Shown here in pieces: positions 5,014 through 30,295 of a stretch of DNA of 64,000 nucleotides (positions are counted from its first letter, which is position 1; every line of letters begins with the position of its first letter). Position numbers and translations under genes: made by a program. The stretch is from NCBI GenBank assembly GCA_964528085.1, contig CAZGRE010000002.1, positions 5,150-69,149 of the forward strand. Reading direction: 5' to 3'. The notes beneath the pieces were generated by a model. It ran no database searches and had not been told where the DNA came from. It worked only from the letters and a program-made list of their open reading frames with translations. Source of the stretch: an uncultured Thermotogae bacterium (lineage in GTDB: Bacteria; Bipolaricaulota; Bipolaricaulia; UBA7950; UBA9294).

Positions 5014-5547
5014 GTGAAGAGACTAGCGATCATCATCTGCCTTCTCGTTTCCGTCCCCGTCCTCGCCTCCGAGGGGATCTTCTTCGGATTCTCGACCGGC
5101 CTCGTGCAGGGGGAGGCGGGGAGGACCGCGATCCTGATCGCGGGGGATGCGAACGCTTGGGAAGGGACGATCGTAAGGGGGATAACCCCGTATCTCGACC
5201 TTGCAGCGACGGGGGGGACGGAGTTCTCGATCGAGGGGAGGCTCCTCGCCATCGATCTTCCACCGATCGGAGGTCTCCTCACCGTGGCCCCCCGCGGATT
5301 CGCGGGGCTCATGCGGCTCTCCCTCGGCCCGGTACGCCTCGATATCTTCCGGCGTTTCGGGGATGAGGGAGAGCGCCGGTTCACCGTCAGCGTATTCCCC
5401 CTGGAGAGGGTCTTCTTTCTCGCCGGCTGGGAAGAGGCATCTCCGTTCCTCGCCCTGCGGGTGAATCCGTTGGCAGGAGGTGCCCTTTGGATCTCCATCC
5501 TTCTCGGCACGGGGCGTCTCTCAGTCGCAGTCGGAGGTGCGTTTTGA
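5014..5547 (+). CDS. Hypothetical secreted protein
   Basis: The ORF-track start at 4789 sits inside tilS and is low-complexity; a GTG at 5014 gives a classic signal peptide KRLAIIICLLVSVPVLASE followed by a beta-rich mature protein. Confidence 0.5.
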   Translation: MKRLAIIICLLVSVPVLASEGIFFGFSTGLVQGEAGRTAILIAGDANAWEGTIVRGITPYLDLAATGGTEFSIEGRLLAIDLPPIGGLLTVAPRGFAGLMRLSLGPVRLDIFRRFGDEGERRFTVSVFPLERVFFLAGWEEASPFLALRVNPLAGGALWISILLGTGRLSVAVGGAF

Positions 5548-12077: not shown

Positions 12078-12303
12078 AATCCCTCCTGTAGCTCGCGGTC
12101 TGCCGTGATTATAGCGGGGAGGGGGTGGGTTGGTCGATCGAGCCAGCTTGTTTTCTGAAACCGGGACGGTCATCGGAGGGTAGATCGATTGCGGGAGGGA
12201 GGACCTTCCGGGAAAGGAGGGTACCATGAAGAATCGACTGAGGGGAGTCCGGCTTCACTTTCGACGTTCATCGCGTTATAGTGGGAAAAAGGAGGTAATC
12301 GCC

Positions 12304-13143
12304 ATGACCGACCGCACTTCGGGCAGCCGGATGTTCGGGCGGCTGATCGTTCCAGTCCTTTTGGTGATCGTACTCGTATTTGTCGCCGCTTCGCCGGCAC
12401 GGAGGGTGATCGCACAGGAAGAGCCGTTCGTAGAGAGGGTCCTTCGAACCTTGACGCTCCTCCCCGAGGATTATCTCCCGGCGTTGGTCCGGCTGATGGG
12501 AGCCATGAATGAGGACGGTGCGCCGTTCTACCTTGCTATCGAGGCCGGGTATATGCCGCGGGAGTTTTTGGCGATGCAGGAGATCGTCGAGCCGATTGAG
12601 CTCTCTCCCAGCGCTTTTCAGATCACCGTATTCAACTTTGAGATCGACCCGGAGAGCGAGGAGGAGCCGTGGTTCAGCGTCGCTGAGCCGCTCGAGGACC
12701 TGGTCTACGATCCGAAGGGGATAGGGATCATGTACCCGAACGTCGGGATCTTCATCCAGGAGGCGCATGAGGCTCCGCCCGAGGGAGAGGCGAGGTTCAC
12801 CGCCGGCCCACCGACCGAGGAGATCGAGGATATGCTCGGCTTGACGGCCCGGCTGACCGGAGATGTGCTCGAGCGACTCCGGATGGTGATGAAGGACCTC
12901 GACCGGATGGATCCCGAGGATCCGATGCGGGTTGGATTCCTGAACAACGTGCGTGAGTTCCTCCTTCGGAGTGGGATCACGCTCCCTGCCTCCGATTATC
13001 GGATCGTTGCCCTCGACTTCCAACGGGCGGAGGCGTTCAACGCGGACATCCCGGATGAGGTGAGGCCAGGCCTCGCTGTCCTTCCGGAGGGGATCGGCGT
13101 ATTCTTCGATCGAATCGGGATCTTCGTTCAGCTTGCGATTTAG
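12304..13143 (+). CDS. Hypothetical secreted protein (first gene of the surface-protein array)
   Basis: ATG at 12304 with AAGGAGGT RBS at 9-nt spacing; N-terminal TM/signal LIVPVLLVIVLVFVAASPA; acidic mature protein. Confidence 0.6.
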   Translation: MTDRTSGSRMFGRLIVPVLLVIVLVFVAASPARRVIAQEEPFVERVLRTLTLLPEDYLPALVRLMGAMNEDGAPFYLAIEAGYMPREFLAMQEIVEPIELSPSAFQITVFNFEIDPESEEEPWFSVAEPLEDLVYDPKGIGIMYPNVGIFIQEAHEAPPEGEARFTAGPPTEEIEDMLGLTARLTGDVLERLRMVMKDLDRMDPEDPMRVGFLNNVREFLLRSGITLPASDYRIVALDFQRAEAFNADIPDEVRPGLAVLPEGIGVFFDRIGIFVQLAI

Positions 13144-13206
13144 TCACAGGATCAGGAAGGAGTGAATGTAGGGTTTCGTGGGGTTACGGGTAAGGGAGGA
13201 GGGCTG

Positions 13207-15417
13207 ATGCTCAGGGAGGCGGTCGGCGGTAAGGGATTGTTTAGCCTGAGGGGGGCCGTGACGGTCCCCCTTTTGATTCTCGTTGTTATGGTCGTGTCGG
13301 TGGCCGTTCGAGCGGACTCAGCCGTCGACATATCGGTTGAGACGATCCGGATCGATCGGTCTCCCGGTGCAGCGAGCGCGGAGGGCTCGCTCGGGTTGGA
13401 TCAGGGCCTCGTGGGGGACACCTTGCACGTGAGTGCCCTCGTCAAGAACGTGGGTACCTCTCCGGTCGGGCAGTTTAAGGTCGATTTCTTCTTCACCGAG
13501 ATGATATCCGGCGAACACGGAAGGATCGGCACACAGACGGTCCTCGGTCTCGATCCCGGGGGGGAGATCCGTCCGGTCGTGGTGGTCGACACCTCGACTT
13601 TCACCCCCGGGATATACGCGTTCTCCGCTGAGGCGGACCCTGACGGGTCATTGGGGGAGGATGAGGATAATCGCTGCAACAACATCGCTCCACGCGGTTC
13701 CTGCGCCGGTCAAGCGAAGGAGAGGCAGGACAAGTACAAGCTCACCCTCCTACGAGAAGGGAAATCGATCTCCGAGCTGAGCGTGACCCCGCGCTTCCCC
13801 GTCTGTCGGATGGGAAAGCTGGAGGAGACGATCACGGTTCACCTGTACAACGTCGGGACGGAGCCGTTGACCAAGGATGACGTCGAGGTCTGGGGCTACT
13901 ACAGGCTGGGACTCGACCCCCCTGCCGATCAATTCACGCCGCTCGTCGTCGATGCGGCGGAGAACCCCGTCCAGTTGTCGGTCAAGAGCTTCGCCGGTCT
14001 AGATCCCGGGAAGGACGGGTACATGACGATAGGCCTCAGCTTCGACGTATTCGACCGGTTGTTCGAGCCACGGAGCACGGAGGAGAATGAAGGGGAGGAC
14101 CTCGGTAATCCCTATCCCGTTCAGCTTCGGATGACGGTCAAGGTCGGAACCGACGAGAAGGACATCTTCCTCCCCGACCAGTTCCGCCTGGCGCAATTCT
14201 ATTCCGCGGTCGATCTGTGGACGTTCCCGGCAAGGCCGGTCTGTTCGTGTACAACTTATGAAGATATAGAGAGTATCTCCGTCCCTCCCGCTGTGGCCGG
14301 GGGGCTCGTCTTTCACGTCGTCTCGACCGCAGCTGGCGATCGGTTGCACGTGTTGAAGGTGAACACCGGCGAGGAGAAGGGGAGTTGGGAGGCGCCGAAC
14401 GGTATCGCCCTCACCTCCCCTGCTGCTTTCTATGATTCGACCGGGAATTCCTACCGGATCTACCTCGGCGGAAGCGACGGGAAGGTCTACTCCCTCCAAG
14501 GTGAGGAGAAGGAGGAGGGGGCGTTCCTGACGAGCCTATGGACGAGCCCCTCTGATATCGTCAGCCCGCCGAGGTCCGGAGGGGCGACGAGTTACCTCCG
14601 TCTTTCCTCCGATGGGACGAAGCTAATCGTCGGTTCGGAGAACGGCGTGTTCGTCCTCGATGCAGCGAGCGGCGATCTCCTCGGGAGCTATACCTCTTAC
14701 GGTCCGGTCAGCACGAAGCCGGCCTACGTCGATGCGACCGGCGCGATCTGGTTCGCGTCGGATGAGGAGATCTATGGAATCCTCCCGAACGGGTCCGAGT
14801 GCACGTACGACGTCAAGGATCGTGTAACGACTTCGCTTGAGCTGAACGGCACGGGGACGAGTCTCTTCTTCGGGACCGAGTCCGGCTCCGTTTACGCCGT
14901 TGATGCCGTTGTCGGCGGAGGGACCTGCACGGTTCTGGCGAGCGCCGATCCCCTGCGGACGGTCGTCGGGATGGCGGTCGCTACCGCGGAGGAGGATGCC
15001 GTCATCTACCTGACGAGTGACATCGGGGAGATCGCCCGCGTCGAGTATGACGAAAGGAAGGGGTTCACGCGGGTCACCACCTCCGAGAGGGATTTCGAGC
15101 CGACGAAGATCCTCGCCGCTCCCGCCATCCTCGAGAACAGGAAGGGCGATGACGCTGATGCCGTGCTGGTTGCAGGAGAATGGAAGGAGAAGGGGGCAAG
15201 GACGTTGCGGCCTGTCCTCCAAGGTTGGAAGAGCGATCTGACGGAGTACGAGACCGTCAAGATATGGGGGTCCTCCGTCTCCCTCGTCTTTGAACCGGAG
15301 GAGGACACCGTCATCCCGCAGGGCCTATTGATGCCGGTCATCGATCAGGATTGGAAGATACTCCTCGTCGCTTCCTCCGACGGGTATCTCTATGCATTCG
15401 ACCTGAGCGGAATTTAG
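13207..15417 (+). CDS. Secreted CARDB-domain protein with C-terminal PQQ-like beta-propeller
   Basis: ATG at 13207 with GGGAGGAGGG RBS; signal/TM VTVPLLILVVMVVSVAVRA; CARDB-type repeat (VSALVKNVGTSPVGQFKVDFFF...EDEDNRCNN); C-terminal propeller blades GKVYSLQG, NGVFVLDAASGDLLG, GSVYAVDA, DGYLYAFDLSG. Confidence 0.7.
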   Translation: MLREAVGGKGLFSLRGAVTVPLLILVVMVVSVAVRADSAVDISVETIRIDRSPGAASAEGSLGLDQGLVGDTLHVSALVKNVGTSPVGQFKVDFFFTEMISGEHGRIGTQTVLGLDPGGEIRPVVVVDTSTFTPGIYAFSAEADPDGSLGEDEDNRCNNIAPRGSCAGQAKERQDKYKLTLLREGKSISELSVTPRFPVCRMGKLEETITVHLYNVGTEPLTKDDVEVWGYYRLGLDPPADQFTPLVVDAAENPVQLSVKSFAGLDPGKDGYMTIGLSFDVFDRLFEPRSTEENEGEDLGNPYPVQLRMTVKVGTDEKDIFLPDQFRLAQFYSAVDLWTFPARPVCSCTTYEDIESISVPPAVAGGLVFHVVSTAAGDRLHVLKVNTGEEKGSWEAPNGIALTSPAAFYDSTGNSYRIYLGGSDGKVYSLQGEEKEEGAFLTSLWTSPSDIVSPPRSGGATSYLRLSSDGTKLIVGSENGVFVLDAASGDLLGSYTSYGPVSTKPAYVDATGAIWFASDEEIYGILPNGSECTYDVKDRVTTSLELNGTGTSLFFGTESGSVYAVDAVVGGGTCTVLASADPLRTVVGMAVATAEEDAVIYLTSDIGEIARVEYDERKGFTRVTTSERDFEPTKILAAPAILENRKGDDADAVLVAGEWKEKGARTLRPVLQGWKSDLTEYETVKIWGSSVSLVFEPEEDTVIPQGLLMPVIDQDWKILLVASSDGYLYAFDLSGI

Positions 15418-15469
15418 GCGGTTTAATTGCAGTGGTTTTTGGTATGATCCGTAGCTAAGTTAAGGGGGC

Positions 15470-18400
15470 ATGATGGGGCGAGGACGTTTCGGCAAGTGTC
15501 TGCTTCTCTTGGGTCTTCTTTCGATTGCGATTATTGTGGTCGGTGCCTACCCGGATGAGCCGCTCCCCGACTTGACGATCGACGGGGTGAGCTTCACTCC
15601 GCAAGGACCGGTCGTCCGCGGTGATCCGCTCTCGGCCGCAGTCGTCATCGTGCGTGCCGGTCAGCCGGTAGACGTGCCGGTCAGGGTTGAGATCAGCTGG
15701 CGGCGGCTGGATGCGGAGGGGGCGTGCGGTTCGGTAATTGAGACGCTCGCTTCCGATGAGGAGACGGTCGAGGTGAAGATCGACACCTCCCTCCTCACCC
15801 CTGGGACGTACGAGCTCGTCGCTCGCGTCGACCCGGAGGATCTGATCGCTGAGAGCGACGAGACGAACAACCGGGCTGTCTTCTACTTCGATGTCCTCCC
15901 TCCGAGGCCGGAGCTTCACCCGGTCAGCCTTAACGTCGACCCGGCCTCCCCGCTCGAGTGGGGGGAGACGGCGACGGTGACCGCTGGCGTCGAGAATACG
16001 GGGAGGCTTTCAGCGGGCGCGTTTCACGTCGAGTTCCTGCTGTTTCCCATCTATTGTCACGACCCGGATACAGGGGAGGCGTGGACGATCTCCGCTCTCG
16101 CTTCCGGTGATGGGGGAATGGCTACCTGGGTCTTCTCCGCGGTGGATGCCCCCCCCGCCGACCTCACCGAGCTGACGGCGGAGATCCCTCCTGGGGCGTG
16201 GATACCGTTTTCGTCCGTCAGGATCCCTGGCCTCGAGCGGGATCAGCAGATAGGGGTGAGTAACCCGTTCTGGACCGGCCAGCCGCTCCGTGATCTTCTT
16301 GCCGCAAGCGGCGAGAAGACGATCAGCGGTTCGATCATGACGCCGCTCAGTGACGACGAGCTGGAGCTTCTCGAGGGGTGCGTGACCACTTACGCGATCG
16401 AGATCCTCGTCGGGGAACCGGCTGGGATGCTCGAAGAGGATCCAATGAACAATCGTCTGAGAAGCGCTCTGACGGTGCAGCCATCGACCCTCGAACTCCC
16501 GGAGCTCGTCCCTGTTCAGATTACGTTCGACCGGGATCTTCCCCTCAACTGGGACGATGACATGGACGCTGAGGTCGTGGTGACGAACCGGGGCGGGAGT
16601 GGGGTACTGAGCGGGTTCGATGTCAGCTACTACTACCGCCGGTCGGGTGAGAGCGAATGGATATTCCTCGACAAGGAGAGGATCTCCCAGTTGGGGATCG
16701 AGGAGGATTCGAACACGGAGAGCGTCAAGGCGACGGTCGACGCCGATCCCAGTCGGCTCTCCCTGAGACCGGGGAGTTACGAGCTGCGGGTCGTCGTCGA
16801 CGAAGCGGACGTGATTCGAGAGCAGAACGAGGAGAACAACGAGCTGGTCGTTGGATTCTCCGTCAAGGGGAGCGAGATTCACCCGATCAGCCTCGACCTC
16901 CCCTCTGCGCCTGTCCATCAAGGGGATACGGTATCCGTCGTTGCCCTCGTGGAGAACACGGGGGAACTCAGCCTTCATGACTTCACCGTCGGCTTTTACG
17001 TCGACGACATCAGGTTCGACACCTTCTACTACCGTTCTCCGGAGAGCGAGGACGGTCTTGAGGAGGATGATAGGACGCGGGTGGAAGGGCTTCTCGATAC
17101 ATCCGATCTCCCGCCGGAGGAGTACACCCTCCGGGTGGTGATCGATCCGGACGACAGGATCCCCGAGCTCGACGAGGGGAACAACACGATCAGCGCTCCC
17201 CTCACGATCCTCCCTCCGCTCAAGCGGCAGGCCGAGCTTCAGCTGACCGGGGTCGATCTCTCACCGGCATCCCCGATCGGGGAGGGGAGTCGCCTCGTCG
17301 TCTCCGCGACCGTCAGGAACGCCGGGGATATCGATGCCGATCGGTTCCAGATCCGATTCGAGGTCTTACCGGTCGAAGGAGGGAGCGCTGTTGAACCTCA
17401 ACCGGGGGATCGGTTCTATATCACCCAGGACGTCCCCGGCCTGGCGCGCTCAGCGAGCCGCGTGATCCAGGTGACGTTCACGACCGATGATTGGCCGAAG
17501 GGATCATACGAGCTTCGCGTCCGCGTCGATCCGCCGTCAACGGATGAGCTCGGGGATCGGGGCGAGGTCGATGAGATCGATGAGCTGAACGATGAGATGA
17601 TCGTGTCGTTTGCGATCGGTCCCCCTCCCGCCGGTGAGGAAGGGGTGGGTCCGACCGATGCCCCGAACCTCGCGTTCGCTGATCTTGCGGTCAGCCCTTC
17701 GACATCGGTCGATGTGGGAACGCCGATCAAGGTCTCCGGGAGCGTCATCAATCGTGGGCGGAGGCCGGCCGGTCCGTTCAGGATCACGATAAAGTGGCTC
17801 GGCCCGGGCGGTGGAGGTTACACGGTCACGACCCAGGACGTCTCCGGCCTCGGAGTCGGGGAATCGGTCGCCATCATACCGGTGACGATCCAGACCTCGT
17901 TCCCGATGGGGACGTACCGGCTCGTGGCGACGGTCGACGCGCGCGCTGCGGTTGAAGAGCAGAACGAGGCCGATAACGAACGGACGATCGAAGTCACGGT
18001 CGGCGGCGGAGCGGGGATCCTCCCCGACCTCGTCCCGACCTCCATCCGCTTCGTCCCTCCCTCCGGCGCTCAGCTCGGCGAGCGGGTGATCGCCTACGTG
18101 ACCGTCCGCAATCAAGGGCCGCTCGCTGTCGGACCGTTCTCGATCGCGTTTACAACCCTGGCGGGGACCGATTACATAATCCGGGATGGCCTCGGCCCGC
18201 TCGGGGAGGTGGAGATCCCATATACCTTCCTTCCGACCGTGGCCGGGGAGTACGAGGTGTCGGTCGTCGTCGACCCGGACGATGCCCTGGCCGAATCGAA
18301 CGAGAAGAACAACGCGATTACGGGCTCGCTCGAAGTCGCTCCTCCGGCGAGGATAGAGGCGGTGGGGGTCGTTCATGACGACTCCCCGGTCAGGCTCCTC

Positions 18401-19417
18401 GCCGTCGATCGTCCTTCAGGGACGGTCTACGCTGCCTGGAGCAACGGGAAGGTGTGGGCGATCGGTCGGAATGGGGAGGTCAGGCTCCTGTTCGATGCCG
18501 GGGAGGGGATCACCGCTCTCGCCATCGATTCCGGCGCGAAGTCAGTCGTCTACGTCGGAACATCGGGGGGTAAGGTCGATAAGGTCGATGCTGCTACCGG
18601 CGAGCTGATCGTCGGATCGGCCCCGTTCGTCTCCCCTGTACGCGTCCTTGTCCTTGCCGGCGGCGGGGGGATCTACGTTGGGACGGAGGAGAGGCTCCTC
18701 CGCCTCGCCAGTGACCTTCAGGTCATTGCCGCGGTCGATGTGAGCGGTGGGATAGTCGATCTCGCATATGACGAGCCGCGGGAGACGGTCTATGCTGTAT
18801 CGCCGGACGGGCTGTATGCGTTCGATGCCGATCTTGCTGCCTTGAGCGATGTCTCCGGTTTTTATGGGAAGCTGAGCGCCCTCTCCCTCGGGAACAGCGG
18901 TCTGTTCGTCGGGACCGACGCCGGGGTCCTGTACGCGTACAGCTATTGCATGTCCCACGCCGGATCTCCGCCGATGATGCTCGCCGGATGGAGGTTTCCG
19001 AAGACGGGGACCCTCGAAGGGGGGATAACGTCGATCGTGGCTGCCGGGGGGACGGGGACAACGTATGTCGCGACCTCCGGCGGGAAGGTCTACGCGGTGA
19101 GCCTGACCGGGGAGTCGATCTGGACCTATCCGGCGATCGAAGGGGAGACGGTCTCTCCGATTCACTCCATCCCGGTGGTGGAAGGGCGATCGGGTCGTCT
19201 CTTCTTCGGTGATGATTCAGGGATACCCTACATTTTGGAGAGCAACGGTTCGCCGGCGTTCAGCGTAGACGCCTCGGCGACGGGTGGTGCGGCGATCCGC
19301 TCCGACCTCGTCGTCGACGAACGGCGAGAGGAGACGGAGTCGGGGAGGGTGTTGGTCCGCACCTATTACTACGGTGCGGAGGACGGTTGGGTTTACAGGA
19401 TCGATTCGCTTAAATAA
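15470..19417 (+). CDS. Giant secreted protein with about 7 tandem CARDB domains and a C-terminal PQQ-like beta-propeller
   Basis: 1315 aa; signal peptide; repeat units of about 110-120 aa, each ending in the CARDB signature DETNN/EENNE/EGNN/NEADNE/NEKNN; propeller blades KVWAIGRNGEV, GGKVDKVDAATGELI, DGLYAFDADL, GGKVYAVSLTGESIW, DGWVYRIDS. Confidence 0.75.
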   Translation: MMGRGRFGKCLLLLGLLSIAIIVVGAYPDEPLPDLTIDGVSFTPQGPVVRGDPLSAAVVIVRAGQPVDVPVRVEISWRRLDAEGACGSVIETLASDEETVEVKIDTSLLTPGTYELVARVDPEDLIAESDETNNRAVFYFDVLPPRPELHPVSLNVDPASPLEWGETATVTAGVENTGRLSAGAFHVEFLLFPIYCHDPDTGEAWTISALASGDGGMATWVFSAVDAPPADLTELTAEIPPGAWIPFSSVRIPGLERDQQIGVSNPFWTGQPLRDLLAASGEKTISGSIMTPLSDDELELLEGCVTTYAIEILVGEPAGMLEEDPMNNRLRSALTVQPSTLELPELVPVQITFDRDLPLNWDDDMDAEVVVTNRGGSGVLSGFDVSYYYRRSGESEWIFLDKERISQLGIEEDSNTESVKATVDADPSRLSLRPGSYELRVVVDEADVIREQNEENNELVVGFSVKGSEIHPISLDLPSAPVHQGDTVSVVALVENTGELSLHDFTVGFYVDDIRFDTFYYRSPESEDGLEEDDRTRVEGLLDTSDLPPEEYTLRVVIDPDDRIPELDEGNNTISAPLTILPPLKRQAELQLTGVDLSPASPIGEGSRLVVSATVRNAGDIDADRFQIRFEVLPVEGGSAVEPQPGDRFYITQDVPGLARSASRVIQVTFTTDDWPKGSYELRVRVDPPSTDELGDRGEVDEIDELNDEMIVSFAIGPPPAGEEGVGPTDAPNLAFADLAVSPSTSVDVGTPIKVSGSVINRGRRPAGPFRITIKWLGPGGGGYTVTTQDVSGLGVGESVAIIPVTIQTSFPMGTYRLVATVDARAAVEEQNEADNERTIEVTVGGGAGILPDLVPTSIRFVPPSGAQLGERVIAYVTVRNQGPLAVGPFSIAFTTLAGTDYIIRDGLGPLGEVEIPYTFLPTVAGEYEVSVVVDPDDALAESNEKNNAITGSLEVAPPARIEAVGVVHDDSPVRLLAVDRPSGTVYAAWSNGKVWAIGRNGEVRLLFDAGEGITALAIDSGAKSVVYVGTSGGKVDKVDAATGELIVGSAPFVSPVRVLVLAGGGGIYVGTEERLLRLASDLQVIAAVDVSGGIVDLAYDEPRETVYAVSPDGLYAFDADLAALSDVSGFYGKLSALSLGNSGLFVGTDAGVLYAYSYCMSHAGSPPMMLAGWRFPKTGTLEGGITSIVAAGGTGTTYVATSGGKVYAVSLTGESIWTYPAIEGETVSPIHSIPVVEGRSGRLFFGDDSGIPYILESNGSPAFSVDASATGGAAIRSDLVVDERREETESGRVLVRTYYYGAEDGWVYRIDSLK

Positions 19418-19452
19418 GCATGGTCGCGCAAGACGGAAGGGAGGCAAGGAGG

Positions 19453-22179
19453 ATGAAGAGAAAGGCTGTACTGGCGGTTGCGGTGCTGCTCTTGGGCCTC
19501 TCGATCGGCCTCGTTGGGCAGGGGATGGAGGAGTTTGCTGAACTGCACGTCACAAAGATCACCTTAGATCCTCCTTCCACGGTCACCCGCGGGGTGCAGG
19601 TCGAGGTTCATGCACGCGTGATGAACACGGGGACTCGGAGCGCTGATCGGTTCGACATCGGCTTCTTCTATCGGCTTCAGGGTAGCTCGGGGAGCTGGAT
19701 CCTGCTCGACAGGGTGGAGGGGGCGAGCCTTGCCCCGAGCCAGCAGGAGTTCCTCGATGTCGTCTTCGATATGGACACCCTTGATATGGCGCTCGGTACC
19801 TACGAGATCAGGGTTGTGGCCGATCTTACGAACGAAATCCCGGAGGTCGATGAGCTGAACAACGAGCTGCGGACGACGATGACGCTCGTCTCATCCTCGC
19901 TTGGCCTCCCCGACCTTCAGCCGGTAGAGCTGACTTACACCTCGACCAATCCTGGGAGCGACGATGACATGCTCCCCTGGAACGTCACCACGTCGATTAC
20001 GAACCTTGGGGAGGAGCAGGCCGGCCCGTTCAGCGTCGTCTTCCTGATCGAGGGCGTTGAATTCGACCGTAAGTTCCTGTTCGCTCTTCCAGCAGGAGGG
20101 TCGACCGAGCTCGTCGGGGAGCTCGACCCCTACGAGCTCGACCTCGGCCCGGGTTCGTACGAGATCACGGTGAGCGTCGATCCCGACGATGAGGTGAAGG
20201 AACAGGATGAGGCGAACAACGAGATATCCGGCTCGCTCACCCTTCTTTCCCCCGAGCTCTACCCGACGAGCCTCGCCTTCGATCGGTCGATCGTCCGGTT
20301 GGACGAGGAGGTTCAGGTTTCGGCTCAGATCAACAACAGCGGGAAGGGGCCGGCGAGCGGCGTCGAGGTCGCGTTCTACGTGAACCACATCCGGTTCGCC
20401 ACACAGACGATCGAGCTTCTCGACCGCGGGTTGAGCACCGTCGTCTCCGGGACCCTGAATCCGGAGAAGCTCGGGTTGACCGATGCCTCGGCCGTTTACG
20501 AGATCAAGGTCGTCGTCGATCCTGACAACGCATTCGACGAGCTCGACGAGGCGAACAACGAGATGATTCGGCCTCTTACGATACTCGCTCCGGAGCCGAA
20601 GCGGCCGGAGATCCATCCGGAGAGCATCGAGCTGAGCCCTCCTTCCCCGGCTGAACTGGGAAGGGCCGCCACGGTGACGGTGTCGACGGTGATAAAGAAC
20701 ACAGGGAGGGCCGTTGCCGATAGGTTCAACGTCGGCTTCTACTATCGGGTGAAGGGAGGCCTCCGTTGGGAGCTCTTCGCATGCAGTGACGAGGAGAGCT
20801 GCAGCGAGGTCAGCCTCAGCCCTGGAGGGCAGATCAAGCTGGTCGGGAGGCTTCCGATCGCCGCGGTCGGACCGGGGATCTACGAGATCCGTGTCCTCGC
20901 CGATTCACAGGACGTGGTCGACGAGCTCGACGAGACGAACAACGAGCTCGTTACGACGTTGACCCTCCTCGCTTCCCGCCTTCCGGATCTTTCGTTCTGC
21001 ATGATGCAGCCGGTTGTGGTCGAGCCCTCGGTTCAGGTCCAACACGGCCAGACGCTCCGCCTCTCCGCATGCGTGACGAACGTTGGGGATCGGGATGCAG
21101 GGGGATTCCTCATCCGCTTCTCCTACTGCCGCGTGAGCGAGGCGGCCGATGGCGCCCCGGCGTGTACCGAGCCGAGCGAGTACAGGACGGCCTACTTCAC
21201 CCCTGGGGCTGAGGTTGAAGTTCAGGGGCTAGCGATCGGGGAGACTGTCCGGGTTCCGGTGTCCCTTGAGACGCGCGACCTCGATCCGGGTCAGTACAAC
21301 ATCCTTGTCCAGATCGACCCTGCGACCGGCTCAGCGAGCGATGGGATGGTTGAGGAGCGTAACGAGCAGAACAACACGACCGTCGTTCAGGTCTCGGTCC
21401 TCGGACCGGACCTGACCGTCGTCGACTTCCGCTCGGAGCCGGAGAGCATCGTTAATAGCGGTGAATCCGTGGAGGTTTCAGCGACGGTTATGAACATCGG
21501 CGTCGAGCCGGCCGGCGGGTTTACGGTCGGGTTCAAGCTCCTCAGGGTAGGCGAGACGACCGAGCCGGTTCGGATCTGGAGCTGCTCGAACGATGAGGCG
21601 ACCGAGTGCATCGGCCCTGAGTACTTCGGGCAGGCGCGGCTCCCCGGGATCGATGTCCTCGTGCCTGAGGAGGTGCGATGCAGCCTCGATACGAGCGGTA
21701 TTGAGGCGGGTGAATACGTCCTCCGCGTCGAGGTTGACGTGAAGGATGCGGTTGTCGAGCACACCGAGATGAACAACTTCGCTGAGATTCCGCTTTTGAT
21801 CGTCGGCGAAGGGGAGGAGGCCATCAGCGAGGGGGCCGATCTGGCCATCGAATCGTTTCGCATCTATAAGATGGGTATGCGCTCGGACGAAGTGCGGTTA
21901 TGGGTGACGCTCATCAATATAGGGAGCACGGACGTTGGCCCGTTTGAAGTTAGTTTCTTCTGTATAAATTCTTCTGCTGCAGAACCGGTTTTCCTTGGTT
22001 CGTGGACCGTGCGCGGTCTTGCAGCTGGGGCAGAAGTAACAATCGTCCGGTCCTTGAATACGTCGACTCTTTCACCCGGAGCGTATGCTGTGGGAGTTAT
22101 TGTCGATTCTGCGAACGCCATTGTCGAGGTGAATGAGGAGAATAATACACAAGAAGGGACCCTCTGGATCCATTATTAG
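19453..22179 (+). CDS. Secreted protein with about 7 tandem CARDB domains
   Basis: ATG at 19453 after GGGAGG/AGGAGG; signal peptide MKRKAVLAVAVLLLGLSIGLVG; repeats ending DELNNE, DEANNE (twice), DETNNE, NEQNNT, TEMNNF, NEENNT. Confidence 0.75.
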   Translation: MKRKAVLAVAVLLLGLSIGLVGQGMEEFAELHVTKITLDPPSTVTRGVQVEVHARVMNTGTRSADRFDIGFFYRLQGSSGSWILLDRVEGASLAPSQQEFLDVVFDMDTLDMALGTYEIRVVADLTNEIPEVDELNNELRTTMTLVSSSLGLPDLQPVELTYTSTNPGSDDDMLPWNVTTSITNLGEEQAGPFSVVFLIEGVEFDRKFLFALPAGGSTELVGELDPYELDLGPGSYEITVSVDPDDEVKEQDEANNEISGSLTLLSPELYPTSLAFDRSIVRLDEEVQVSAQINNSGKGPASGVEVAFYVNHIRFATQTIELLDRGLSTVVSGTLNPEKLGLTDASAVYEIKVVVDPDNAFDELDEANNEMIRPLTILAPEPKRPEIHPESIELSPPSPAELGRAATVTVSTVIKNTGRAVADRFNVGFYYRVKGGLRWELFACSDEESCSEVSLSPGGQIKLVGRLPIAAVGPGIYEIRVLADSQDVVDELDETNNELVTTLTLLASRLPDLSFCMMQPVVVEPSVQVQHGQTLRLSACVTNVGDRDAGGFLIRFSYCRVSEAADGAPACTEPSEYRTAYFTPGAEVEVQGLAIGETVRVPVSLETRDLDPGQYNILVQIDPATGSASDGMVEERNEQNNTTVVQVSVLGPDLTVVDFRSEPESIVNSGESVEVSATVMNIGVEPAGGFTVGFKLLRVGETTEPVRIWSCSNDEATECIGPEYFGQARLPGIDVLVPEEVRCSLDTSGIEAGEYVLRVEVDVKDAVVEHTEMNNFAEIPLLIVGEGEEAISEGADLAIESFRIYKMGMRSDEVRLWVTLINIGSTDVGPFEVSFFCINSSAAEPVFLGSWTVRGLAAGAEVTIVRSLNTSTLSPGAYAVGVIVDSANAIVEVNEENNTQEGTLWIHY

Positions 22180-22303
22180 CATCGGATATGGAATTTCCTT
22201 CGTCCTTGAGGGGGAGTGCGGCTGAAGGGGGGAGCCGATAACCGGCGGTTCACCTTTTTCTGAAACGAAGGTGGAGCTTTCGGTGTATAGTTGAATAACG
22301 GAG

Positions 22304-22885
22304 GTGAGAGCTGTGAGGCGATATGTTGGTGTTGCGTTGGTCCTTTTGGTCGTGTCAGTAGCTATGTTCAGCGTGGCTGCGGCTACCTCGACGGTTTATG
22401 GAACCCGCTTCAAGGTGGGAGAGACGATCCAGTTCAAGATCGAGGATTCCACGATCTGGTGGGGGGGCTGCTGCTGTTGCACATCCTGTACGGAGACTTC
22501 CGTCCTCGGATGGCATATCACCAACAGCGCAGGGCAGACGATCTACAACGCCATCAATGATGCCCCTGTCCCTGCGTCAAGCTGGGTCGGGACCTGGACG
22601 CAGATCGACGCGAACGACAACCCCGTCGGCGCAGGACAGTACATGCTCTACGTTGATACGTCCATCGGCACGCTGTCGCGCTGTTTCACGATCTACGATC
22701 CGTGCGGGTGTAACTATCCGTACTGGTGTAACGCGTGTACGTGCGAGGAGCTCCCGTCGATAACGAACTGCGGGTGCAAGACGACGCTCGTGTTCGTAGA
22801 TACGTGCCAGAACTGTTATTTCCCGTTCTTCTGGTGGTTCGGATGCTGCTCTTCGCCGTGCAGTAGCTGCGCAGGTTCTCCGTAG
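22304..22885 (+). CDS. Small secreted cysteine-rich protein (20 Cys, CCCC motif); start may be the GTG at 22313
   Basis: GTG starts at 22304/22313 after GGAGG; signal peptide VGVALVLLVVSVAMFSVAAA; mature protein has GGCCCCTSCTE and a C-terminal CGCNYPYWCNACTCEE...CGCK...CQNCYFPFFWWFGCCSSPCSSC. Confidence 0.6.
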   Translation: MRAVRRYVGVALVLLVVSVAMFSVAAATSTVYGTRFKVGETIQFKIEDSTIWWGGCCCCTSCTETSVLGWHITNSAGQTIYNAINDAPVPASSWVGTWTQIDANDNPVGAGQYMLYVDTSIGTLSRCFTIYDPCGCNYPYWCNACTCEELPSITNCGCKTTLVFVDTCQNCYFPFFWWFGCCSSPCSSCAGSP

Positions 22886-22946
22886 AGAGAATCCCGGGGG
22901 TCTTGAACGCCTACCTCGCAGCTGATACGCTTCTTTGTAGAGGCTT

Positions 22947-23029
22947 GCGAGGGTGGCGGAACTGGCAGACGCGCTAGCCTTAGGAGCTAGTGCCTTCGGG
23001 CGTGCGGGTTCGAATCCCGCCCTTCGCAT
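22947..23029 (+). tRNA. tRNA-Leu (anticodon TAG)
   Basis: Cloverleaf with long variable arm; anticodon loop CTTAGGA; acceptor GCGAGGG/CCCTTCGC; T-loop GGTTCGAATCC. Confidence 0.8.
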
Positions 23030-23069
23030 TTGAAGCTCCGTTGCGGACGGGCTATAATGTTGAGCTCAA

Positions 23070-23144
23070 GCGGGAATAGCTCAGCGGTAGAGCACTGCCT
23101 TGCCAAGGCAGGGGTCGCGGGTTCAAATCCCGTTTCCCGCTCCA
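23070..23144 (+). tRNA. tRNA-Gly (anticodon GCC), CCA encoded
   Basis: GCGGGAATAGCTCAGCGGTAGAGCA...anticodon loop TTGCCAA...GGTTCAAATCC...CCA. Confidence 0.85.
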
Positions 23145-23169
23145 AGCATCGAGCCGGGGAATGCCGACA

Positions 23170-23253
23170 GCCGGGATGGCGGAATTGGCAGACGCAAGGG
23201 ACTTAAAATCCTTTGAGGGTTTCCTCGTGCGGGTTCGACTCCCGCTCCCGGCA
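23170..23253 (+). tRNA. tRNA-Leu (anticodon TAA)
   Basis: GCCGGGATGGCGGAATTGGCAGACGC...anticodon loop CTTAAAA; long variable arm; GGTTCGACTCC; acceptor TCCCGGC. Confidence 0.8.
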
Positions 23254-23267
23254 AAACGAGAAGATAC

Positions 23268-23344
23268 CGCGGGGTGGAGCAATCTGGAAGCTCGTCGGGC
23301 TCATAACCCGGAGGTTGCCGGTTCGAATCCGGCCCCCGCAACCA
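23268..23344 (+). tRNA. Initiator tRNA-fMet (anticodon CAT), CCA encoded
   Basis: Near-identical to canonical bacterial tRNA-fMet (CGCGGGGTGGAGCA...CTCATAACCCG...GGTTCGAATCCGGCCCCCGCAACCA); unpaired C1:A72; three consecutive G-C pairs in the anticodon stem. Confidence 0.9.
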
Positions 23345-23349
23345 GACGA

Positions 23350-23424
23350 GGCGGCGTAGCTCAACCGGTTTAGAGCGCTCGGCTCATATCCGAGAGGTTC
23401 GGGGTTCGAGTCCCTGCGCCGCTA
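23350..23424 (+). tRNA. tRNA-Met (anticodon CAT; elongator Met or lysidine-modified Ile2, not distinguishable by eye)
   Basis: GGCGGCGTAGCTCAACCGGTTTAGAGCG...anticodon loop CTCATAT...GGTTCGAGTCC; acceptor closes with a G1:U72 wobble. Confidence 0.7.
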
Positions 23425-23432
23425 GTGATTTT

Positions 23433-23506
23433 GGGGGCGTAGCTCTAATCGGGAGAGCGCTGCGTTCGCAACGCAGAGGTTGGCGGTTCGAATCCGCTCG
23501 CCTCCA
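23433..23506 (+). tRNA. tRNA-Ala (anticodon CGC)
   Basis: GGGGGCGTAGCTC...anticodon loop TTCGCAA...GGTTCGAATCC; G3:U70 alanine identity pair. Confidence 0.85.
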
Positions 23507-23548
23507 CACTTTCCTCCAGGTTTCCTTTTCTCCAAACCCTCAAAGGAA

Positions 23549-23604: not shown

Positions 23605-24864
23605 CTACCAGCTCAGCCTGACTGAGAGCTTCCAGGCGGTAAAACCGGTTGTATCCACCGTGATCGAGCTAGACATACGGATTGAGGAGCCCAAGGCGAG
23701 GGTGACGCCCATCGTGCTCTGTGCCCAATCGAAAAGGAGACCGGTGGATGTGCTGAAGAACGTGTCCGCTGAGAAGGAGAACCCGCTTCCAAAAGGAGGT
23801 ACATCGACGGTGAGTGAGACGATCTCCCAATAGTCTTGGGGGTAGTAGATGTGCCCCTCTGTGATTGCTTCAGTGAGCGGTTCGACGACCGAGCCGAAGG
23901 CAGGGGTTGTGATCACGTAGTCGGTTGTATTCAGGTTCGAGATGCTGGTAAGGGAGGCTCCACCTATCTCCGCGGTAAACTTTATCCCGTAGATTTCAAG
24001 TGCGGTGATCGTCCCTCCGCTTTCAAGGAGGTTCGTATAAACAGATAGACAACCGTAGTCTGTCTCTAGCGATGGGGAGAACGTGTAGCTTGCCGACTGG
24101 AGGGTATAGGTGAAGTCGAGGACGAGGTTGAAAGGGATTCCGAATAGATGCAGGAAAGAGAGCTCGATCTCTTCACTTTCAAACCCTGTCTTCCCGAAAC
24201 TGGTTGTGCTCGACAGTTCGACACAGGTGAAAGCGTTGGCGGTGAACGTGAGATCCGCCCCGCAGAAGTAAGCCGGGATCGGCTCAATTGTTGGATCAGT
24301 CTCATACGTCTTCGACAGCACCGAGGGATCGGTATGGTCTCCCGTAGCGGTGAACGTGATTCCACTTAGATCCGCTCCGAAGTATATAGCGCTCTCGAAG
24401 GTAAAAAACCCGTCGATGATCTCTCCGTATAGATCGACTACGTACCCGTAGTTCACCGGTTCCGACTGTGTCTCTCCGACCATTGCTCCGTACAGGCTCA
24501 GCGTGAGGGGTGGGATCAAGACGGCCATTCTCCCCTGAGCGTAAAGGAATGAGCCACTCTGCGGCTCAAACAACAACTGCCCCGAGAAGCTAACTGGCCC
24601 TAACGCTGCGTCAAGGTCGAATTCTTGCCAGAGCCAGCCGTCAAATACGAAATCCGAGATGCTTGAAATCTCCAAGAAATCTAGGTGGAGTCCGACATCG
24701 AGCGTCGATTGGAAAGAGGTGAACGGCCTTGTCTGTTGGGGGGAGAGACCGATTTCGGCGAACCAACTGCCGGTGATGTATTCGCTTCCTCCGTTGTTTC
24801 CGGTTGCGATGACAAACGCCCCTAAGACTAATGCGATCGCGATCAGCAAGCCTCTGATGTTCAC
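23605..24864 (-). CDS. Hypothetical secreted beta-rich protein
   Basis: 419 aa; signal peptide MNIRGLLIAIALVLGAFVIATG; S/T/G-rich mature protein with alternating beta-strand pattern. Confidence 0.55.
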   Translation of the reverse strand: MNIRGLLIAIALVLGAFVIATGNNGGSEYITGSWFAEIGLSPQQTRPFTSFQSTLDVGLHLDFLEISSISDFVFDGWLWQEFDLDAALGPVSFSGQLLFEPQSGSFLYAQGRMAVLIPPLTLSLYGAMVGETQSEPVNYGYVVDLYGEIIDGFFTFESAIYFGADLSGITFTATGDHTDPSVLSKTYETDPTIEPIPAYFCGADLTFTANAFTCVELSSTTSFGKTGFESEEIELSFLHLFGIPFNLVLDFTYTLQSASYTFSPSLETDYGCLSVYTNLLESGGTITALEIYGIKFTAEIGGASLTSISNLNTTDYVITTPAFGSVVEPLTEAITEGHIYYPQDYWEIVSLTVDVPPFGSGFSFSADTFFSTSTGLLFDWAQSTMGVTLALGSSIRMSSSITVDTTGFTAWKLSVRLSW

Positions 24865-27861: not shown

Positions 27862-28665
27862 ATGAAGGGGCTAGCGATTGGTCTGCTTGTAATCCTGCTG
27901 GGCGGCGCTGCTACGAGCGCTGGTCAGCTTGAGATGTCGATCGGCGGTGGACCGACCGCGATCTCCCTCAAAGGGATCAACGGATCGATCGGCGTCATCA
28001 ACACGGTTATCGATCTTCTAAACGAAACGTTCGCCATCCATCCGGATGTCACCGGCTCGGTCGACAGCCTCAAACCGATGTCGAGCGGGCTCGCCCTTTG
28101 CGCGGAGGAGCGCTACTGGCTGACCGATTGGTTCGCGTTCGGCGGGAGGTTCGAGTACCTCCGCTCCACGAGCGCCGTCTCGGGTGAATACCACGGGAGC
28201 GAGGTCTCGACGATCGACATCGCGCTCGACCTGAACGGGATCGGGCTCGTCCTCGGCGCCCGGGTGGTCTTCCTCGATATGGGGCTCGTCCTCGCCGCTG
28301 AAGGGGGAGTCGGCTACTACTACACGATGTTCGACCGCTCGATCACATTCGAGATCCCTTCCGAATACCCGGATGTGATATCCGTCGTCCCTCCCGAGGG
28401 GGAAGGACGCTACACCGGCGGAACGTTCGGCCTCGAGCTCGGCATCTCCCTCTACTACAGGATTGCTCCCTGGTTTTCAATAGGATCCAGCGTTTCATAT
28501 CGAAGTGGGTCGATCGAAGCCCCGTCCGATCGGGACGGGGATGGGCTCGATCTCGATGGAGATGGGGTGACGGAGGGGATTGACCTCGATGGGGTCTCGG
28601 TTCAGTTTACATTCTCTGTGAGTATCGATCTCGCCCTGACCGGGGAGAAAGGAGTGGCACAATGA
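27862..28665 (+). CDS. Hypothetical outer-membrane beta-barrel-like protein
   Basis: Signal peptide MKGLAIGLLVILLGGAATSAG; alternating aromatic/hydrophobic beta strands (WFAFGGRFEY, GYYYTMF, LYYRIAPWFSIGSSVSY); Asp-Gly repeats DRDGDGLDLDGDG. Confidence 0.5.
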   Translation: MKGLAIGLLVILLGGAATSAGQLEMSIGGGPTAISLKGINGSIGVINTVIDLLNETFAIHPDVTGSVDSLKPMSSGLALCAEERYWLTDWFAFGGRFEYLRSTSAVSGEYHGSEVSTIDIALDLNGIGLVLGARVVFLDMGLVLAAEGGVGYYYTMFDRSITFEIPSEYPDVISVVPPEGEGRYTGGTFGLELGISLYYRIAPWFSIGSSVSYRSGSIEAPSDRDGDGLDLDGDGVTEGIDLDGVSVQFTFSVSIDLALTGEKGVAQ

Positions 28666-29339
28666 GGGCTGCTAGGTTCTGTCTGCTTATCGTTGCGGCG
28701 ATCATCGTCGCTGTTTCGCTCAGCGGGTGCCTGATGAAGGACACGCATCCGAAGGCGGTGTTCACCGCCTCGCGCGCTGAGCAAGTGGTCCCGTTCACGG
28801 TCAGTTTCGATGGGACCCCCTCCTACAAGCCGAACGGGAAGATCGCTTCCTATCTTTGGACGTTCGGGGACGGGGCGGCCGATACCGGACCGGTCGTCGA
28901 TCATACCTACGTGGAGGATGGCGACTACGAGGTCCGCCTGACCGTGATCGACGAGGAAGGGATGTCGACCTCAAGCACGTTGACCGTCCACGCGCTCAAC
29001 CCTCCTCCGTCGGCCGAGTTCTCCTACAGTCCGAAGAGCAACATGGAGGGGGAGTACGTCGTCGGCGCGAGCGAGTGGATAACCTTCGACGGGACGGAGT
29101 CGACGGACGACGGTGAGGTCATGACTTACGAGTGGAACTTCGGTGACGGTACGACCGACTCCGGCCCCATCGTCCAGCATCGCTACCTGTATCCGGGGAC
29201 GTACAACGTCGTCCTCACCGTGACGGATAACGATGGAGGGAAGTCGAACTACGTGGAGAAGGTGACGATCGTCGGGGGGCCTCCGTGCAACGCCGATATC
29301 ACCGGGGATGTAACGTGGAACAGCGGGGGGCACAAATGA
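28662..29339 (+). CDS. PKD-domain lipoprotein (two PKD domains)
   Basis: Lipobox LSGC; two copies of the PKD signature WTFGDG / WNFGDG...Y.V.LTVTD. Confidence 0.8.
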   Translation: MRAARFCLLIVAAIIVAVSLSGCLMKDTHPKAVFTASRAEQVVPFTVSFDGTPSYKPNGKIASYLWTFGDGAADTGPVVDHTYVEDGDYEVRLTVIDEEGMSTSSTLTVHALNPPPSAEFSYSPKSNMEGEYVVGASEWITFDGTESTDDGEVMTYEWNFGDGTTDSGPIVQHRYLYPGTYNVVLTVTDNDGGKSNYVEKVTIVGGPPCNADITGDVTWNSGGHK

Positions 29340-30295
29340 CAAAGAGGCTGCTTATCATCGGGTTACTTCTCTCTCCGCTCTTCCTCTCTGGGTGCGTTCT
29401 CGACACGATCCTAAGCGATGTTGTCAATCATCCGCCGACGGCTGTTATCGATGCGTCGCCGTTGAGTGGGCCGGCCCCGCTCACCGTGTCGCTCGATGCC
29501 CACTTCTCTCACGACGAAGACGGCTCGATCATCGAGTACCACTGGGAGGTGGGGGATCCGGCGGCGACCGGTCCGCTCACCGGGAGTGCGTGCGAGTACA
29601 CGTTTACAAATCCCGGGACCTACCTCGTCAAGCTGACCGTGGTCGACGATGACGGGGCGAGCGACTCACAACAGGTCGCAATCGTCGTCACGAATGCCCC
29701 TCCGGTCGCCCAGGCGAAGGCGAACAAGACCTCCCCCTACCCAGGGGTCGAGGTAACGTTCAGCGCCGAGGGATCATACGACTACGACGGGACGATCGTC
29801 GACTACCGCTGGGATTTCGGGGACGGCGGATCGGCGATCGGTGAGACGGTGACCCACACCTATGCCGAAGGCGGCTACTACGTCGTCACCCTCGTCGTCA
29901 CCGACGATGAGGGGGCGAAGGGGTCGACCCATTTCGGGATCAACGTCCTCCCCGGGCACAGCAACTGCACGACCCCCCCGGCCGGTGGGGGTTCGTGTAA
30001 CGGCTCGTCGGTCACCCCGCTTGCCGTGATCACCGGCCTCCCCTCTTGTAGCGGGGGGGAGGCAGGGGTACCGCTTACGTTCGATGGGACCGCTTCCCGT
30101 CCGGCTGTCGGGAAGATCGTGACCTACCAGTGGGATTTCGGTGATGGCACGACCGCGACCGGTCCTGTCGTCACGCACACCTACACGAAGGCGTGGACGT
30201 ACATGGTCACTCTGACGGTCGTTGACGAGGGCGGAGGGGTCGGGACCGCGATCGGCTCTTGTCCGATCAGCGGAGGCACCTGCACCGGGGAATAG
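29336..30295 (+). CDS. PKD-domain lipoprotein (three to four PKD domains)
   Basis: ATG at 29336 overlapping the previous stop; lipobox FLSGC; repeated WEVGD/WDFGDG...TLVVTDDEG motifs. Confidence 0.8.
   Translation: MTKRLLIIGLLLSPLFLSGCVLDTILSDVVNHPPTAVIDASPLSGPAPLTVSLDAHFSHDEDGSIIEYHWEVGDPAATGPLTGSACEYTFTNPGTYLVKLTVVDDDGASDSQQVAIVVTNAPPVAQAKANKTSPYPGVEVTFSAEGSYDYDGTIVDYRWDFGDGGSAIGETVTHTYAEGGYYVVTLVVTDDEGAKGSTHFGINVLPGHSNCTTPPAGGGSCNGSSVTPLAVITGLPSCSGGEAGVPLTFDGTASRPAVGKIVTYQWDFGDGTTATGPVVTHTYTKAWTYMVTLTVVDEGGGVGTAIGSCPISGGTCTGE

Follow-up and report, generated by a model that had tools for sequence, protein, structure and literature searches.

A small cysteine-rich secreted protein of Bipolaricaulota and its conserved pairing with a strict (Ala-X)n giant

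What does a small, secreted and unusually cysteine-rich protein do, and which protein does it work with? The question is raised by the gene at 22304-22885 (+) in a 64,000-nt stretch of DNA from an uncultured Thermotogae bacterium that GTDB places in the Bipolaricaulota (assembly GCA_964528085.1, contig CAZGRE010000002.1, positions 5,150 to 69,149 of the forward strand; hereafter the window, with the encoded protein called the target). An initial annotation of the window had described it as the last gene of an array of CARDB surface proteins. The present analysis points elsewhere: the most informative feature of the target family is its conserved pairing with a giant protein built on a strict (Ala-X)n repeat, a pairing seen at loci other than the window. 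Bipolaricaulota are globally distributed, uncultured and deep-branching bacteria, whose envelope is either monoderm or a simple diderm like that of Thermotoga. The gene cassette described here is specific to the phylum and strongly conserved and looks highly expressed, and its products are candidate structural parts of the envelope or of appendages.

The target family and its giant neighbour

The open reading frame (ORF) at 22304-22885, with its TAG stop at 22883-22885, exists and translates as initially quoted, including WWGGCCCCTSCTETS and the C-terminal strings. The longest reading has 193 amino acids and starts at 22304, the first possible start, which lies inside the Shine-Dalgarno sequence GGAGGTG (22300-22306). 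GTG at 22313, giving a product of 190 amino acids, is the probable true start, because it has the same Shine-Dalgarno spacing as the homologues and is equivalent to the GTG from which a gene caller started P0001, a database protein of 190 amino acids that is 99% identical to the target. Residue numbers throughout refer to the 193-residue reading from 22304. We counted 19 cysteines (residues 56-59, 62, 127, 134, 136, 142, 145, 147, 156, 158, 168, 171, 181, 182, 186 and 189) instead of the 20 first reported, and 13 of them lie in residues 134-193, where 15 had been claimed for about the last 60 residues. Cysteine makes up 9.8% of the ORF and 11.4% of the 166-residue mature protein, compared with 0.98% over the 47 genes of the window, an enrichment far above chance. 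The CCCC run (codons 22469-22480, residues 56-59) is the only one in the six-frame translation of the window. The second-highest cysteine content in the window (4.1%) belongs to a 121-residue ORF at 50422-50787 (-).

Scans of the target against Pfam and NCBIfam gave no match at E values up to 0.1, and a sequence-profile search of the PDB gave none that was significant (the best were CGTase, E = 0.2, and FlgD, E = 0.79). A word-indexed search returned 68 homologue clusters with E values from 1e-39 to 1e-127 and 47-99% identity to the target; their lengths range from 149 to 238 residues, nearly all of them 175-209. When 1.84 billion representatives were scanned exhaustively with HMMER, only 27 proteins came up, all of which are family members or fragments of them. 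When one genome per GTDB species was scanned, 35 family loci were obtained, labelled as Bipolaricaulota, Acetothermia or Bipolaricaulis (16), 'uncultured Thermotogae' or Thermotogota (11), 'uncultured bacterium' (5) or otherwise (3). Based on these labels and on one syntenic backbone that is common to most of the longer loci, the family is taken as restricted to Bipolaricaulota. The target is a member of a new, uncharacterised family of small secreted proteins, defined by a length of 175-210 residues, a signal peptide, the core motif LYVDTSxGTLSRCF...DPC, a C-terminal xP and conserved cysteines at positions 56, 57, 62, 134, 136, 145, 147, 156, 158, 186 and 189, and it shows every one of these features. 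No paralogues were found near the homologue loci, and literature searches retrieved no publication on the family or on the (Ala-X)n giant.

Codon comparisons indicate a real gene under purifying selection, with both halves of the protein constrained. Relative to three conspecific contigs from other samples (loci L042 to L044), the target differs by 4-7 synonymous changes and a single non-synonymous one, located in the signal peptide, and the ratio of non-synonymous to synonymous substitution rates (dN/dS) is 0.04-0.07. Relative to the 80%-identical homologue at locus L007, the closest relative beyond these conspecifics, dN/dS is 0.16 (0.14 for residues 1-132 and 0.19 from residue 133 to the end).

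Clustering of all ORFs around the homologue loci proved too noisy, with shadow ORFs arising in DNA of 62% GC, and targeted checks were used instead. They revealed a cassette with the same order across the phylum: a divergent RHH-like gene, the target gene, a secreted giant of 1,100-1,310 residues, six tRNAs and a convergent OMP-like gene. In one form of the cassette (type B), found in 17 of the 30 informative GTDB species, the giant lies 55-103 nt 3' of the target gene on the same strand and has a strong Shine-Dalgarno sequence of its own; where the sequence extends far enough, the tRNA array follows the giant and the OMP-like gene, here OMP419, lies beyond. In the other form (type A), seen in the window and 12 GTDB species, the target gene is directly followed by the six-tRNA array and convergent OMP419 (415-461 residues). 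One further species has a differing arrangement and five loci are too short to classify. Type B is represented in each of the two deep clades into which the family tree splits, and it is therefore probably ancestral.

The operon linkage holds in both directions. The C-terminus of the giant was used to fetch 27 metagenome loci, eight of which are truncated; in all 19 informative ones, a member of the target family is found directly upstream of the giant, with the RHH-like gene divergent beyond it. The RHH-like protein has 56-57 residues (KLSIYIP...RDRSVNYLVVEAILQYL) and a sub-threshold match to RHH_1 (17.4 bits, cut-off 20.5). Its gene is adjacent and divergent upstream in 14 GTDB loci, such as L003 (9720-9893), L001 (9652-9825), L005 (9636-9806) and L006 (3462-3635), all on the (-) strand, and is displaced in one more, L030; it probably encodes the regulator of the cassette. 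The window lacks the RHH-like gene, and tblastn of 12 giants against its 64 kb gave no match, with the flanking tRNA array and OMP419 both present.

The giants were located at L019 (10629-14507), L009 (3980-7864), L023 (10617-14555), L029 (9879-13466), L031 (10572-14174), L033 (6382-9678), L037 (5168-8770), L040 (858-4463) and L041 (2010-5696), and also in L045 to L070. They contain no Pfam domain. Each begins with a signal peptide and the conserved motif PVLPDIVAxAQAAA, followed by a repeat of 710-900 residues (about 850) that consists of 47-49% alanine in a strict period-2 register: the probability of finding alanine at a given distance from another is 0.63-0.79 for every even distance up to 14 and 0.24-0.35 for odd ones. 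Cysteines of the giant mostly occupy X positions, typically as ACA, so that most of their spacings are even, and the spacing series 14, 18, 14, 32, 98, 142, 32, 60 is shared by four of the eight giants examined, which are distant homologues. A linker rich in cysteine and proline (for example PECLxPVCEEYEPCPPCPE) leads to three immunoglobulin (Ig)-like beta-sandwich modules and the terminal motif QQGGxxRAVY, and these C-terminal modules resemble the tandem Ig/Fn3 arrays of adhesins and S-layer proteins. In an AlphaFold2 (AF2) model of a giant fragment, the Ala-X part becomes a single long helix whose confidence declines from 87 to 54. Such a helix is at odds with the period-2 pattern, and the model is not decisive between a helix and a silk-like beta structure. 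All 15 database homologues of the giant C-terminus (P0094-P0108) are contig-end fragments; the Ala-X repeat breaks short-read assemblies, and absence of a giant from draft metagenome-assembled genomes is therefore an unreliable sign. As a type of sequence, the (Ala-X)n protein is itself unusual and may interest research on protein materials. It has no domain or motif in common with the target family, whose profile gave a best E value of 0.8 in an hmmsearch against 12 giants.

Anatomy of the target and constraint on its cysteines

The target begins with a Sec-type signal peptide (22313-22384, +; residues 4-27), as read from the sequence and from an alignment of homologues (A1). It has three arginines in a basic n-region, about 18 hydrophobic residues and a cleavage motif between AAA and TS, and AF2 models a helix at residues 2-26. 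The AF2 model of the whole protein, calculated from a 30-sequence alignment, has a mean predicted local distance difference test score (pLDDT) of 78. Residues 34-131 (22403-22696, +), whose pLDDT exceeds 90 except in a Trp/Cys loop at residues 51-60, are confidently predicted to form a generic Ig-like beta-sandwich; the full loop STIWWGGCCCCTSC spans residues 49-62 and includes the CCCC run. The sandwich is followed by a cysteine-stapled extension (22697-22807, +; residues 132-168) with the pattern CxC-x5-CxxCxC-x8-CxC-x9-C, modelled with a pLDDT of 66-86 for residues 133-168 and with a beta-hairpin at residues 152-164 that packs on the sandwich. An aromatic and cysteine-rich tail (22808-22882, +; residues 169-193, QNCYFPFFWWFGCCSSPCSSCAGSP) completes the protein and falls below a pLDDT of 50. 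The tail contains neither a transmembrane helix nor a basic cluster, and its last residue is proline. Alignment A1 shows no variation at F176 or at the terminal P193, and conservation of at least 90% at G180. There are 24 aromatic residues among the 166 of the mature protein.

Among the Ig-like beta-sandwiches, FlgD_ig, the C-terminal sorting domain of the type IX secretion system (T9SS) and the macroglobulin MG domain are closest to the predicted fold. However, none of them gave a hidden Markov model (HMM) match at any threshold, and they have no counterpart of the Cys/aromatic extension and tail; moreover, the sandwich of the target is the N-terminal domain of a stand-alone 166-residue protein and not a tag on a cargo. 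Membership in the FlgD_ig or T9SS sorting families was rejected, with neither an HMM match nor a cargo C-terminus found, and Bipolaricaulota are not known to possess a T9SS.

Several other protein classes were considered for the target and set aside. It has no lipobox, its first cysteine is residue 56 and its signal peptide ends in AAA before TS, which rules out a lipoprotein. LPXTG, PEP-CTERM, GlyGly-CTERM and MYXO-CTERM sorting signals were rejected for a tail that lacks both a hydrophobic stretch of at least 15 residues and Arg or Lys; it ends in ...CAGSP, and no NCBIfam sorting signal matched. A type IV pilin is contradicted by the lack of a +5 Glu and by the conserved AxA motif for signal peptidase I. 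A Foldseek match to the archaeal pilus 8fk7 (E = 4e-3), which reflects a helix followed by a beta domain, is not significant. The CxxCxxCP motif that would suggest a ferredoxin-like 4Fe-4S protein ends only 15 of the 106 full-length family members, and the target ends in CSSCAGSP. Finally, export of a cofactor protein by the twin-arginine (Tat) route was discarded: the RR pair is not conserved, and the consensus in alignment A1 is K/R-R/x-W.

Conservation of the cysteine columns was assessed over 117 aligned homologues, and run lengths, parity and motifs over the 106 full-length members. Eleven columns are at least 88% conserved: C56 (97%), C57 (90%) and C62 (91%) in the loop, C134 (95%), C136 (92%), C145 (98%), C147 (93%), C156 (97%) and C158 (88%) in the extension, and C186 (92%) and C189 (90%) in the tail. 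Less conserved are C127 (79%), C142 (75%), C168 (64%) and C181 (66%). The extra cysteines of the CCCC run are lineage-specific, with C58 present in 21% and C59 in 13%. The longest cysteine run has two residues in 73 members, three in 14, four in 10, five in six and six in one. The CCCC that had attracted attention in the initial annotation is hence not a family feature, since a run of at least four occurs in only 17 of 106 members; as the equivalent region of L007 reads WWWGCCSC, it arose recently, when a conserved CC was expanded in this lineage. The family has two versions of an aromatic-Gly-Cys-Cys motif, WWWGCC in the loop (91 of 106) and FxWFGCC in the tail (68 of 106). About 102 of the 106 members end in xP, and 75 in CP.

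Cysteines are also lost jointly. C62 and C158 are both absent in eight sequences from several lineages, with single losses in only three and two; C168 is never present without C142, and both are absent in 24 sequences; C127, C142, C168 and C181 come and go as a block; and C127 and C147 are lost together in L007 and P0002. Such joint loss is expected for cross-linked pairs, either as disulfides or as shared ligand sets. Together with the eleven conserved columns and the C-terminal dN/dS, these paired losses show that the cysteine-rich C-terminal module is functionally constrained. The counts per member, however, have no even bias (57 even and 49 odd), the modal core count of the family being 13 compared with 19 in the target, and runs of as many as six cysteines are accommodated in the loop and tail. 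The lack of even bias and the long runs suggest that some thiols of the family are free or intermolecular rather than all engaged in intramolecular disulfides. The secreted cysteine module postulated at the outset is therefore genuine, and it may be either a disulfide knot or a metal-binding module, as suggested there.

Independence from the CARDB array

The genes immediately upstream of the target form an accessory block of about 10 kb (12226-22179, +) with Pfam CARDB matches, comprising a 305-residue ORF, a 751-residue protein with CARDB and beta-propeller domains and two CARDB-repeat giants of 1315 and 919 residues. The target gene had been read as the terminal gene of this array and its product as an anchor or partner of the CARDB giants. 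In support of this view, the two are adjacent and co-oriented in the window and in the three conspecific contigs, and only a weak terminator-like site lies between them. Nevertheless, tblastn of the 751-, 1315- and 919-residue proteins against 41 homologue loci from 35 species gave no match, and no CARDB gene was found within 10 kb of a target homologue at any of the 41. Apart from the window, the block is carried only by the three conspecific contigs, which are 99% identical, so the expected co-occurrence with CARDB arrays in related genomes does not extend beyond the species, an outcome that the initial annotation had itself named as contradicting its reading.

A comparison with L007 shows a precise deletion. 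This locus has the same backbone, PrpD (-), IsoDH (-), target (+), tRNAs and OMP419 (-), and lacks the CARDB block. It retains the promoter, the Shine-Dalgarno sequence and about the first four codons of the block, fused to the promoter region of the target gene. Because this remnant of the block start is joined to an intact target promoter region, L007 has cleanly deleted the block of about 10 kb (12.2-22.2 kb in the window) with the target unaffected. At the junction (L007 5040-5215, aligned with window 12215-12285 plus 22240-22300), the fusion keeps the block promoter TATAGTG; it also gives rise to a possible upstream ORF of 19 codons, which overlaps the target promoter. The two sets of genes differ in evolutionary regime as well. 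The 919-residue CARDB protein (19420-22179) is 92% identical over its whole length in L042, and its C-terminal third is only 72% identical in L044 and 83% in L043, whereas the mature target is 100% identical in all three. The regimes are hence decoupled, and the variation of the CARDB protein suggests diversifying or recombining surface repeats.

Moreover, the target gene has a sigma-70-type promoter of its own, conserved phylum-wide, with a short leader and a strong Shine-Dalgarno sequence. A -35-like box, TGAAAC (22261-22266, +), has a conserved position upstream in 42 loci, with TTGACA or TGACAC as its counterpart in other family loci. The extended -10 box TGTATAGT (22284-22291, +) is invariant in alignment A3, and nearly all of the 42 loci have GGTGTATAGT, GGTGTATATT or close variants (GGTGTACATT, GTATAGA, TAGAAT) upstream of the Shine-Dalgarno sequence. 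The latter (GGAGGTG, +) likewise shows no variation in A3, and almost every family locus keeps it, 6 nt before a GTG or ATG start and 13-32 nt, mostly 16-24, from the -10 box.

Taken together, the link between the target and the CARDB proteins is accidental and the CARDB genes are unrelated accessory cargo; we regard a partnership of the two as very improbable. A tempting but false functional connection is thereby removed.

The initial annotation had also placed a hairpin (CACCTT...AAGGTG) in the 5' leader of the gene. Its stem is real: CACCTT at 22251-22256 pairs with AAGGTG at 22268-22273 and can be extended to 8 bp, giving the inverted repeat TTCACCTT-N11-AAGGTGGA (22249-22275), which has the -35 box in its loop. 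The position was misjudged, however; the repeat lies upstream of the -10 box and of the predicted transcription start and is therefore not a leader element. A longer imperfect stem at this site has a folding energy of -17.5 kcal/mol (z = -2.85), matched by 3 of 200 shuffles. In L042 all 8 bp of the inverted repeat match perfectly. In L007 the stem (around 5165-5195) is retained with one compensatory change from C-G to A-T, and the repeat was not seen in loci more distant than L007. A terminator-like site found by consensus scan downstream of the 919-residue CARDB gene (22232-22261, +; a GC-rich stem at 22232-22251 followed by a T-run, with a putative function) overlaps the hairpin. The inverted repeat may be a clade-specific operator or a terminator remnant.

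Possible roles in the cell envelope

We tentatively propose, at somewhat less than an even chance, that the target, rich in thiols and aromatic residues, serves a fibre or layer of the envelope as adaptor or cross-linker. As a Sec-exported protein it folds into an Ig-like beta-sandwich, and its C-terminal extension, held by the conserved, co-varying cysteine pairs, packs back onto this domain. The Trp/Phe/Cys tail mirrors the aromatic-Gly-Cys-Cys loop on the sandwich. As an accessory subunit of a surface fibre or envelope layer built from or with the giant, the target could anchor, cap, nucleate or cross-link that structure, with its exposed loop and tail making intermolecular disulfide, thiolate or hydrophobic contacts. 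The secretion signals, the fold, the constraint on the cysteines and their pairing, the two-way operon linkage and the independence from CARDB are shown by the data above, and surface localisation, physical interaction with the giant and thiol chemistry are what we infer. In the lineage of the window, the giant and the RHH-like gene are absent from the locus and yet purifying selection is strong, which leaves two alternatives: either the target works with a partner encoded elsewhere, or it has an envelope role independent of the giant. It was reported that the envelope of Acetothermia is atypical, possibly a diderm of the Thermotoga type (PMC6092417).

A number of points weigh against this proposal. 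Localisation and binding are deduced throughout. The window and 12 of the 30 informative species have no giant at the locus, so there is no strict dependence on a giant encoded in cis. The two proteins are without a common domain or motif, and the tail, on which the mechanism relies, has no confident AF2 structure. With an anaerobic lifestyle, it is uncertain that disulfides form outside the cytoplasm of these organisms, and the cysteines could instead be metal ligands. In addition, conservation of gene order in a phylum that is generally syntenic is weaker evidence than co-transfer would be.

A bolder form of the adaptor proposal, which we consider rather doubtful, is that target and giant make up an undescribed, Bipolaricaulota-specific extracellular fibre or sheath, in which a silk-like or period-2 alanine polymer is capped, anchored or thiol-cross-linked by the target. 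The WWWGCC loop and the FPFFxWFGCC tail would then provide the attachment surface for a giant with a conserved cysteine ladder. If so, the window would represent a natural 'adaptor-only' lineage, implying a second, fibre-independent role in the envelope.

Two other explanations leave the giant aside. The target might be an extracytoplasmic metal-binding protein that buffers or chaperones Zn, Cu, Ni, Fe or Co, or acts as a sink for them in the way of a metallothionein. In a periplasm that is reduced and sulfidic, conserved thiolates of the CxC, CxxC and CC motifs would hold ions or a metal-sulfur cluster, mounted on an Ig-like scaffold similar to that of CopC. Odd and variable cysteine counts and the anaerobic lifestyle favour this idea, and the cysteine density and the CxC, CC and CxxC spacings recall metallothioneins and cysteine-rich metal tails. 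Unlike these, the target is secreted and aromatic-rich, carries its cysteines on an Ig-like domain and loses them in pairs; no metallothionein or other metal-binding family was matched by HMM. Strongly conserved Trp, Phe, Tyr and Pro residues are interspersed among its cysteines, an arrangement not typical of metallothioneins, and almost no His, Asp or Glu ligands surround the clusters. A pre-assembled Fe-S cluster is unlikely with a twin-arginine motif that is not conserved, and hundreds of Ig-like domains resemble the target at least as closely as CopC does. Genes for metal transport or resistance do not recur near the target loci, where the recurrent neighbour is a fibrous surface protein. 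We judge this metal-binding explanation to be unlikely. Assignment to the bacterial metallothioneins SmtA/BmtA was rejected in view of the signal peptide, the aromatic content and the empty Pfam and NCBIfam scans.

It is also improbable, in our estimate, that the target is a stand-alone, disulfide-knotted envelope protein, such as a rigid adhesin or a module binding the wall or the outer membrane, whose adjacency to the giant reflects co-regulation only. Such a protein could use a Trp patch formed by the WWW loop and the FPFFxWF tail to bind glycan, peptidoglycan or a membrane interface in the manner of a carbohydrate-binding module (CBM), and the aromatic motifs in loop and tail would suit this purpose. 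But a knotted protein is poorly reconciled with cysteine counts that are not even-biased, no CBM family was detected, no glycan-related genes recur near the target loci, and the reverse linkage with the giant in 19 of 19 loci is stronger than co-regulation would lead one to expect.

Known systems provide partial parallels to the adaptor proposal. In the chlamydial OmcA/OmcB system, as in the cassette, the gene for a small cysteine-rich secreted protein immediately precedes that for a large secreted envelope protein, and the organisms have an atypical envelope for which thiol-mediated cross-linking of a layer has been proposed; the likeness is an analogy and not a tested membership. There is no sequence or domain homology, and OmcA is a lipoprotein, whereas the target has no lipobox. 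Compared with OmcB, the giant is fibrous, with about 48% alanine and only about 2% cysteine, and this large partner is absent from the window. The surface-fibre pairs CsgB/CsgA (curli) and TapA/TasA, each with an accessory or nucleator subunit, resemble the cassette: the gene for a small exported protein accompanies that for a main component with far more repeats, under a promoter of their own and close to a small regulatory gene. In curli, however, the two subunits are paralogous, whereas the target and the giant share no repeat or domain; the cassette contains no dedicated secretion or assembly genes, and a strict (Ala-X)n repeat is unlike curli or TasA. A nucleator/major-subunit pair of the curli type was rejected on the lack of paralogy (best E value 0.8).

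Downstream of the target gene, the window contains the six-tRNA array Leu(tag), Gly(gcc), Leu(taa), Met, Met and Ala(cgc) (22946-23507, +), which begins 60 nt after the target stop and has the same order in all informative loci. It is preceded by a promoter-like site, TTGAAC-N17-TACGCT (22903-22931, +), whose elements CTTGA(A/C)C...GATACGCT are also found in L007 and L020; a terminator scan between the target stop and this site found none. A second promoter-like site (TTGAAG-17-TATAAT) is located at 23030-23058, between tRNA-Leu and tRNA-Gly. At the far end of the cassette lies the convergent gene for OMP419 (23605-24864, -), a 419-residue protein with a signal peptide and no match in Pfam or in the PDB sequence search, whose homologues hold the same convergent position in more than 25 loci. 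OMP419 is beta-rich by eye and ends in ...LSVRLSW, which resembles the C-terminus of outer-membrane beta-barrels, and it is probably a protein of this type. Its conservation bears on the question of whether Bipolaricaulota are diderm.

Further downstream (27862-30295, +), a 267-residue protein with a sub-threshold match to OMP_b-brl (E = 1e-4; 22.9 bits, cut-off 28.7) is followed by two PKD-repeat proteins of 225 and 336 residues. Synteny of these three genes extends to every long homologue locus, and they may form a further envelope module.

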